DNA of 64,000 nucleotides from Escherichia coli (GTDB lineage: Bacteria; Pseudomonadota; Gammaproteobacteria; Enterobacterales; Enterobacteriaceae). The notes under the pieces are model-generated. The model did not search any database and was not told where the DNA came from. It worked only from the letters and a program-made list of their open reading frames with translations. The stretch is taken from NCBI RefSeq assembly GCF_044324785.1, contig NZ_CP172127.1; one strand, given 5' to 3'. The translations under genes and the position numbers were made by a program. How positions within the stretch are numbered: the stretch's first letter is position 1; the number at the start of each line of letters is the position of its first letter. Shown here in pieces: positions 46,777-49,895 of the stretch.

Positions 46777-48755
<1,979 letters not shown>

Positions 48756-48757
<2 letters not shown>

Positions 48758-49895
48758 GTCAGAGCCCCTCGATCTCAATCAGTTAGCGCAAAAAATTAAA
48801 CAGTGGGGGCTGGAACTGGGCTTTCAGCAGGTAGGTATTACCGATACCGATCTCAGCGCGTCCGAGCCCAAACTGCAAGCATGGCTGGACAAACAATACC
48901 ACGGCGAAATGGACTGGATGGCGCGTCACGGTATGCTGCGTGCTCGTCCTCACGAATTATTGCCCGGTACGCTGCGCGTGATCAGCGTGCGGATGAATTA
49001 CCTTCCTGCTAACGCCGCATTTGCCAGCACGCTGAAAAACCCCAAGCTCGGCTATGTGAGCCGTTATGCGCTGGGCCGTGACTATCACAAACTTCTGCGC
49101 AACCGACTCAAAAAGCTGGGCGAGATGATTCAGCAACATTGTGTTTCGCTGAATTTTAGACCGTTTGTCGATTCTGCGCCTATTCTCGAGCGTCCGTTAG
49201 CTGAAAAAGCAGGACTCGGCTGGACAGGTAAGCACTCACTTATCCTCAATCGCGAGGCTGGTTCGTTCTTCTTTTTAGGCGAATTGCTGGTCGATATTCC
49301 TCTGCCCGTGGATCAACCGGTCGAGGAAGGATGCGGTAAATGCGTGGCCTGTATGACGATTTGCCCGACCGGAGCCATCGTCGAACCATATACCGTCGAT
49401 GCTCGCCGCTGTATCTCTTATCTCACCATCGAACTGGAAGGGGCGATCCCGGAAGAGTTGCGACCGTTAATGGGAAACCGTATTTATGGTTGCGATGACT
49501 GCCAGCTTATCTGCCCGTGGAATCGCTATTCGCAACTCACTACAGAAGACGATTTCAGCCCGCGTAAGCCGCTACACGCTCCGGAACTCATTGAGTTATT
49601 CGCCTGGAGCGAAGAGAAGTTTTTAAAAGTCACGGAAGGTTCGGCGATTCGCCGTATAGGTCACCTGCGTTGGCTGCGTAATATCGCCGTAGCATTAGGC
49701 AATGCCCCCTGGGATGAAACGATTTTGACAGCACTGGAAAGTCGTAAAGGTGAGCACCCACTTCTCGATGAGCACATAGCGTGGGCGATTGCGCAGCAAA
49801 TCGAGAGGCGAAATGCGTGCGTGGTCGAAGTGCAATTACCGAAAAAACAGCGTCTGGTTCGGGTGATTGAAAAAGGGTTACCGCGTGACGCCTGA
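48756..49895 (+). CDS. queG: Epoxyqueuosine reductase
   Basis: ORF 48648..49895; 379-aa product from ATG 48756 ([18 protein letters not shown]...); 4Fe-4S ferredoxin Cys motifs. Confidence 0.9.

Follow-up and report, generated by a model that had tools for sequence, protein, structure and literature searches.

Can two divergent genes begin on the same two nucleotides, or is one of the two annotated start codons wrong? The question is raised by nnr (yjeF; NAD(P)HX epimerase/dehydratase) and queG (yjeS; epoxyqueuosine reductase) in a stretch of 64,000 nucleotides (nt) of Escherichia coli (assembly GCF_044324785.1, contig NZ_CP172127.1), called the window below. The two genes are considered, with a probability of about 0.8, to be a genuine head-to-head overlapping pair: both annotated ATGs are true starts, the expression signals of each gene lie in its partner, and the pair is a divergent excludon. 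The overlap was already present in the reference annotation, and the overlap of the transcripts has been published and classed as an excludon. What is added here is the depth of conservation, the evidence that makes a start at the sixth nnr codon (Met6) unlikely, and the anatomy of the dual coding, in which the Nnr residues SIPH correspond to one -10 element, the QueG residues Pro-Leu to a Shine-Dalgarno sequence (SD) and a rare AGA codon to the other -10 element.

Geometry of the junction and identity of the genes

The + strand of the junction reads tatggtccgtCATGtcagagcccc. A palindromic CATG at 48755-48758 holds both start codons, one on each strand. The ATG of queG occupies 48756-48758 (+) and opens a coding sequence (CDS) of 379 amino acids (aa) beginning MSEPLDL (48756-49895, + strand; the stop codon ends at 49895). 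The ATG of nnr occupies 48757-48755 (-) and opens a CDS of 515 aa (47210-48757, - strand; stop codon at 47210-47212). Positions 48756-48757 are common to both start codons (2-nt overlap). These are the positions that the original prediction had given, and they agree with the K-12 RefSeq annotation (nnr 4394066..4395613, queG 4392928..4394067), which has the same 2-nt overlap. An identical overlap is found in E. coli records annotated by the Prokaryotic Genome Annotation Pipeline (PGAP), of which several RefSeq records were sampled. Region 48300-49200 is 99.9% identical to E. coli strain 1190 and about 97% identical to K-12.

Both products are full members of their families. Nnr scores 1026 bits against the PRK10565 equivalog (NF007856; cut-off 703), the match extending over residues 1-509; residues 17-220 are covered by TIGR00197 and residues 231-499 by TIGR00196. 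Nnr also matches PF03853 and PF01256 and has both the YjeF_N and the carbohydrate-kinase domain. QueG matches the TIGR00276 equivalog with 509.8 bits (cut-off 200) over residues 14-348, and also matches PF08331 and PF13484 (DUF1730 and 4Fe-4S domains). Residues 1-16 of Nnr and 1-13 of QueG are N-terminal extensions outside the family-wide cores. The approximately 80 bp between the two cores is in effect a translated intergenic region. No structure of E. coli Nnr was found in the PDB; that of T. maritima Tm0922 aligns from residue 61 only and is thus uninformative on the N-terminus.

Conservation of the shared start

The comparative set includes 80 fetched loci encoding QueG relatives, 34 of which are Enterobacterales loci (genera or species). 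An identical CATG junction is found in 30 of these 34 (by tblastn, residue 1 of Nnr falls at locus position 3002 and that of QueG at 3001), in Escherichia, Citrobacter, Enterobacter, Kluyvera, Cedecea, Pantoea, Mixta, Serratia, Yersinia, Rahnella, Budvicia, Acerihabitans and Edwardsiella. It is also found beyond this order set, in a Tolumonas locus (L071) and a metagenome-assembled genome (MAG; L067). Three Alteromonadales loci (Bowmanella, L050; Lacimicrobium, L061; Neptunicella, L072) carry CAATG (TTG/ATG), a variant of the CATG arrangement. The sole in-frame nnr start candidate of these three loci is the TTG, the first base of which coincides with the A of the queG ATG (1-nt head-to-head overlap).

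Constraint is concentrated at the junction. Third positions are invariant at 6 of the 10 first codons of queG versus 23/289 elsewhere in the gene (p=8e-5), and at 6 of 10 for nnr codons 1-5 plus 12-16 versus 6/283 elsewhere (p=2e-7). Of 5425 E. coli genomes, 4637 carry the 90-nt junction in identical form; for two control windows in the gene bodies, the corresponding numbers are 30 and 36 genomes. The only indel between the first nnr ATG (ATG1) and the Nnr core is a 9-nt, in-frame insertion in one locus (L010). The conservation of the junction exceeds chance, and the nnr/queG overlap is a conserved feature of orthologous loci, not an annotation accident in one genome.

Head-to-head overlaps of prokaryotic CDSs are very rare. 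Among 663 overlapping adjacent pairs of E. coli, only two are divergent (Huvet & Stumpf 2014), which makes the nnr/queG architecture unusual. The pair resembles the other reported cases in its short, out-of-phase overlap of 5′ ends on opposite strands. Many reported divergent CDS overlaps are suspected to be start mispredictions; that of nnr/queG is instead conserved across an order.

The two genes are separated in some lineages. In Brenneria roseae (L028, 2780-3004), the junction is apparently duplicated (about 147 nt), each gene having a private copy. In Pectobacterium zantedeschiae (L031, 1800-3004), about 1.1 kb lies between nnr and queG. In Photorhabdus and Xenorhabdus, nnr is not found within 3 kb of queG. 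In the separated lineages, P-L-D of QueG becomes P-Y-D and SLPH of Nnr decays, as expected if the signals of the partner had held those residues.

Expression signals carried by the partner gene

The original prediction held that the promoters and ribosome-binding sites must lie inside the partner CDS, and the signals found bear it out: the SD of nnr lies in queG codons 4-5, the -10 element and leader of queG in nnr codons 1-14, and the -10 element of nnr in queG codons 133-135.

The putative queG promoter is an extended -10 element, TGgTATACT (48716-48724, + strand), which on the other strand reads as nnr codons 12-14 (AGT ATA CCA, Ser-Ile-Pro). An extended -10 element was defined as a TG one base upstream of a TATAAT-like hexamer, with a transcription start site (TSS) 6-9 nt downstream. 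The queG hexamer matches at 5/6 positions, the TG is present, no -35 element is recognisable, and the published 5′ end (48732) sits 8 nt beyond the motif. In every Enterobacterales locus but L010 (-52, owing to its 9-nt insertion), TGnTAnnnT is found 40-43 nt ahead of the queG ATG; overall, 67/79 loci have it, versus 7.8% of random windows. It is also present in five loci in which nnr does not abut queG (L028, L031, L033, L036 and L042); the loci that keep the motif despite separation include Brenneria, Pectobacterium, Photorhabdus and Xenorhabdus. After separation, the nnr copy of the motif decays (SLPH to VLPC, SLPD or QLPT). Since it is queG that keeps the motif, it is probably a queG promoter and not merely the trace of a constraint on Nnr. 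It resembles the extended -10 (TGn) promoters of sigma-70 in having a TG and a hexamer, no -35 element and a 5′ end 8 nt downstream; it differs from them in being embedded in, and co-evolving with, the Ser-Ile/Leu-Pro codons of a neighbouring gene. In a MAG of Candidatus Oceanisphaera merdipullorum (L049, 2925-3000), three to four tandem units of about 17 nt (TTTATGA[CT]CAGCCAG...) are found in the nnr-queG spacer and put the extended -10 about 116 nt ahead of the queG ATG.

The 5′ leader of queG (48732-48755, + strand) is about 24 nt long, U-rich, lies in nnr codons 1-9 and has only a weak GG at -11/-10. The sequence TATGGTCCGT-CATG is nearly invariant, and the GG(T/C) of the leader is kept in Brenneria and Pectobacterium, where the genes are apart. 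A PqueG deletion primer used in a study of the datA locus (PMC10950094) joins the equivalents of window positions 48727 and 48695; the 31 bp lost (48696-48726) include the extended -10.

The SD of nnr ATG1 is GAGGGG (48765-48770, - strand; 7-nt spacer), the reverse complement of queG codons 4-5 (CCC CTC, Pro-Leu). The -10 element of a proximal promoter of the nnr operon, TAAAAT (49153-49158, - strand), lies inside queG codons 133-135 (AAT TTT AGA, Asn-Phe-Arg). The block CTGAATTTTAGACC is invariant in 19/20 Enterobacteriaceae loci (one MAG, L019, has TTG); neighbouring synonymous sites vary. The invariant nnr-promoter stretch of this family, AATTTTAGA, includes a rare AGA Arg codon found in 20/20 Enterobacteriaceae loci and replaced by CGN in other families; it is this rare codon that maintains the TAAAAT. 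The 5′ leader of nnr (388 nt; 48758-49145, - strand) runs antisense to codons 1-130 of queG as well as to the first bases of its transcript. The nnr gene may also be transcribed from beyond queG, since ExcludonFinder lists a noncontiguous yjeV-queG-nnr operon.

A consensus promoter scan of 48300-49300, which demands both hexamers, found nothing; this is explained by both candidates being dominated by their -10 element, and they were therefore read by eye and tested by conservation. An Rfam scan of 48400-50800 detected three tRNA-Gly genes only, with no RNA family at the junction.

nnr is the first gene of the nnr-tsaE-amiB-mutL-miaA-hfq... operon, which has been called the most complex of the genome (14 genes, 8 promoters; Conway et al. 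2014, PMC4161252). nnr and tsaE overlap co-directionally by 29 nt (47210-47238, - strand; tsaE ATG at 47238, nnr stop codon at 47210-47212), as they do in the K-12 annotation.

Overlapping transcripts and double-stranded RNA

Published K-12 coordinates were converted through a gapless alignment of the window with K-12 and a 1977-nt offset between U00096.2 and U00096.3, checked with the read CAUGACGGACC. The row given for this pair in the supplement of PMC7373196 lists a 'Divergent' overlap of Conway et al. for yjeS/yjeF (U00096.2 4391701-4392114, 413 nt), with a + strand operon running from P 4391701 to T 4408049. The converted 5′ ends are 49145 (4391701, nnr strand) and 48732 (4392114, queG strand). 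Each lies 8 nt downstream of a -10 element called from the sequence alone, and the published K-12 data thus agree with these calls.

RNA from both strands of this region pairs in K-12. The p19-captured cluster S-361 of double-stranded RNA (dsRNA) covers U00096.2 4391754-4392109 (window 48737-49092, both strands) and, with 5,635 reads per million (RPM), is among the top 20 coding clusters (Huang et al. 2020, PMC7373196). The dsRNA MS-212 of Lybecker, as listed in the supplement row for this locus, covers U00096.2 4391717-4392100 (window 48746-49129). Processing of the paired transcripts by RNase III is known from the literature (MS-212 and S-361; PMC7373196). The two -10 elements (48716-48724, +; 49158-49153, -) face each other about 430 bp apart, and the divergent 5′ ends overlap, which is the arrangement of a divergent excludon.

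The concept of the divergent excludon was reportedly introduced by Sesto and colleagues in 2013. For MG1655, ExcludonFinder (Nucleic Acids Research 2025, PMC12288877) lists 16 divergent excludons, queG-nnr being one of them, and 3 noncontiguous operons, which include yjeV-queG-nnr. As in other divergent excludons, the 5′ transcript regions overlap, form dsRNA and are substrates of RNase III. In most excludons, the untranslated regions overlap and intergenic DNA lies between the CDSs; here, the CDSs themselves overlap at their start codons and there is no intergenic DNA. The yjeS/yjeF pair is found in all three surveys of overlapping divergent operons (Conway, PMC4161252; Lybecker 2014; Huang, PMC7373196). 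Its overlap is 413 nt, versus a survey mean of 168 nt; the sharing of start codons and the dual-coded signals were not analysed in these surveys.

These elements can be assembled into a working model. As intergenic DNA is absent, the signals of each gene would be written into the short N-terminal extension of its partner (Nnr 1-16, QueG 1-13). queG would be transcribed from the extended -10 in nnr codons 12-14 with a 24-nt leader. The nnr ATG1 would be served by the GAGGGG made of queG codons 4-5, and the nnr operon would be transcribed from the -10 in queG codons 133-135, possibly also from further upstream; because this promoter lies inside queG, the first third of that gene is covered in antisense by the 388-nt leader. 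The transcripts overlap by about 413 nt and, in the published K-12 data, pair into dsRNA that RNase III cuts. The layout, its conservation and the signals are observed here, the transcript ends and the dsRNA in published work; the expected result is what we infer, namely that queG and the nnr operon would damp each other by transcriptional interference and decay of the dsRNA.

Start codons of queG and nnr

For queG, codons 2-55 contain no alternative ATG, GTG or TTG, and in several genera in-frame stop codons are found 3-8 codons upstream of the ATG. An upstream GTG (48648; open reading frame (ORF) of 415 aa) was rejected: it lies upstream of the 5′ end of the transcript and ahead of these stop codons. 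A hairpin GGGG...CCCC around the queG ATG was also rejected, its 5′ arm not being conserved.

For nnr, the duplex of the ATG1 SD with the anti-SD has a free energy of -7.2 kcal/mol, in the top 3% of random 25-mers, and an SD of -4.5 to -12.2 kcal/mol is found ahead of ATG1 in 30/30 CATG loci. An upstream TTG (48778; ORF of 522 aa) was rejected (no SD, +1.3 kcal/mol; stop codons in that stretch in other genera). Taken as predictions from sequence, the comparative and SD evidence strongly favours both annotated starts, and ATG1 is probably the main nnr start in E. coli, its use there being something that we infer.

Weighing the evidence

Several observations weigh against a genuine shared start in a functional excludon. 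The TSS coordinates come from RNA-seq coverage quoted in the supplement of PMC7373196, and the assignment of 4392114 to the 5′ end of queG is our own reading of what the rows and columns of that table mean. The accessible part of the Cappable-seq supplement yielded no matching coordinates. No demonstration of reciprocal regulation of queG and nnr was found in the literature consulted. queG has essentially no SD (-2.2 kcal/mol). The conservation of ATG1 is confounded: two of its three bases are the AT of queG, and the C at -1 is kept where nnr has moved away, so that conservation of this codon taken alone is weak evidence. Codon 6 of nnr is ATG, GTG, TTG, CTG or ATT throughout Enterobacteriaceae, which makes a second start conceivable. 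In MAG L019 ('Proteobacteria bacterium CTSoil_132', 2980-3004), a 1-nt insertion between the equivalents of nnr codons 5 and 6 puts the CATG start out of frame, and only the ATG equivalent to Met6 (MKKNPASIPH...) is in frame for Nnr. No entry for nnr/yjeF or queG/yjeS was found in the accessible parts of the literature on translation starts and N-terminomics (Meydan 2019 text, Nakahigashi 2016 supplements, TRAINSPOTTER 2026, INRI-seq, Salmonella riboproteogenomics); the lone 'nnr' match of INRI-seq is an irrelevant off-target list for a peptide nucleic acid (PNA).

The architecture could be a neutral by-product of compaction, with the antisense overlap and the dsRNA as transcriptional noise devoid of any regulatory role. 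Overlapping 5′ ends are found in 136 of 388 divergent E. coli operons (Conway et al. 2014, PMC4161252), which makes the overlap of transcripts commonplace, and no phenotype was reported for an nnr::frt-kan insertion or the PqueG deletion in the datA study (PMC10950094). For the regulatory part, this explanation stays alive. Against it, the layout is older than the split of the Enterobacterales families, and the strong selection on synonymous sites and on the rare AGA codon indicates that the embedded signals are functional; this argument is limited to expression signals, the conservation of which does not prove cross-regulation. Neutral packing is accordingly judged a serious explanation, though on balance an unlikely one.

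The nnr start could be misannotated in E. coli. Translation would then begin at Met6 (48742-48740, - strand; 510 aa), a 13-nt untranslated gap would separate the genes, and the conserved codons for MTDH would only complement the queG leader. The position and the 510-aa length that the original prediction gave for this alternative are correct; a start there is disfavoured. Besides E. coli and Citrobacter, several genera have the Met6 ATG, and codon 6 is NTG or ATT in 18/18 Enterobacteriaceae loci. As the epimerase domain begins at residue 17, a 510-aa Nnr would be complete, and the retention of GG(T/C) in separated loci means that constraints on the queG leader could explain the conservation upstream of Met6. 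MAG L019, which can use no other start, is either a natural experiment showing a viable 510-aa Nnr or an assembly error. Against these points, Met6 lacks an SD (-3.2 kcal/mol, 41st percentile of random 25-mers), whereas that of ATG1 is strong, conserved and ideally spaced (7 nt). Outside Enterobacteriaceae, codon 6 encodes E, K, R, Q or C (the Pantoea locus L021, with a TTG Leu, is the exception), and none of Mixta, Serratia, Yersinia, Rahnella, Budvicia, Acerihabitans or Edwardsiella, which all have the CATG layout, offers a canonical start there; 12/30 CATG loci have no ATG, GTG or TTG alternative before the conserved Nnr core. The 9-nt indel of L010 keeps the frame from ATG1. In Brenneria, where the genes are split, nnr still opens at the homologous ATG (MADQ...) behind its own GGGGGAG SD. 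In the parts of the Nakahigashi re-annotation tables that are accessible, nnr is not listed. Exclusive use of Met6 is thus improbable.

Joint use of ATG1 and Met6 in Enterobacteriaceae (two Nnr proteoforms, 515 and 510 aa) is likewise improbable: codon 6 is NTG in 17/18 loci of this family (Leu only as TTG/CTG, Val only as GTG) and a ribosome positioned by GAGGGG could occasionally pick the second ATG, 15 nt away, but the SD would then be 22 nt from its start codon, far outside the functional range, the codon 6 pattern is equally explained by a hydrophobic residue and the constraints on the queG leader, and the accessible translation-start and N-terminomics literature holds no proteoform data.

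Flanking features

Downstream of queG, the small ORF yjeV (49878-49931, - strand; b4670 in K-12, with 17 aa; a 'hypothetical protein' for PGAP) runs convergently into the last 18 nt of queG, so that queG is overlapped by opposite-strand genes at both ends. The yjeV-queG pair has been classed as a convergent excludon (ExcludonFinder, PMC12288877).

Two exact matches to the DnaA box, TTATTCACA and TTATCCACA (49909-49917 and 50071-50079, - strand), are the only ones in the window and lie between the 3′ end of queG and glyY. Their number in the whole window is not above chance; their placement fits the literature on datA, the DnaA-inactivating locus described at this position between queG and glyY (PMC10950094).

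The glyVXY genes (50168-50463, - strand) are three tandem, identical-scoring tRNA-Gly genes. Rfam gives a sub-threshold match to YrlA over two of them (40 bits; gathering score 69), which the tandem arrangement of the tRNAs almost certainly produces as an artefact. Long + strand ORFs (50045-50571) are not genes: they are read-throughs of the tRNA-Gly repeats.

Significance

The case adds no new principle beyond an annotated overlap and a published excludon. In this natural example, one stretch of DNA holds a promoter, a ribosome-binding site and the codons of two proteins, one on each strand; this dual coding explains why certain synonymous sites and the rare AGA codon stay frozen. E. coli has only two divergent CDS overlaps, and this one heads the most complex operon of the genome (nnr...hfq...rlmB). 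Tagging nnr at its 5′ end, or deleting sequence there, destroys the queG promoter, and changes made to queG codons 1-135 affect signals of the nnr operon. The phenotype of a knock-out of either gene can therefore be polar on the other.

A bolder reading, which is speculative and on present evidence rather unlikely, is that the shared-start architecture is a conserved regulatory switch. Antisense nnr-tsaE-amiB-mutL-miaA-hfq transcription through the promoter, leader and first 130 codons of queG, started at the promoter within queG and perhaps also fed by glyVXY/yjeV read-through, would set the output of queG by interference and RNase III cleavage, and would reciprocally couple the maturation of queuosine to an operon encoding t6A/i6A tRNA modification and Hfq. 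If this were true, S-[IL]-P-H of Nnr and P-L-D of QueG would be 'promoter- and SD-encoded' peptides that do little in the proteins themselves.

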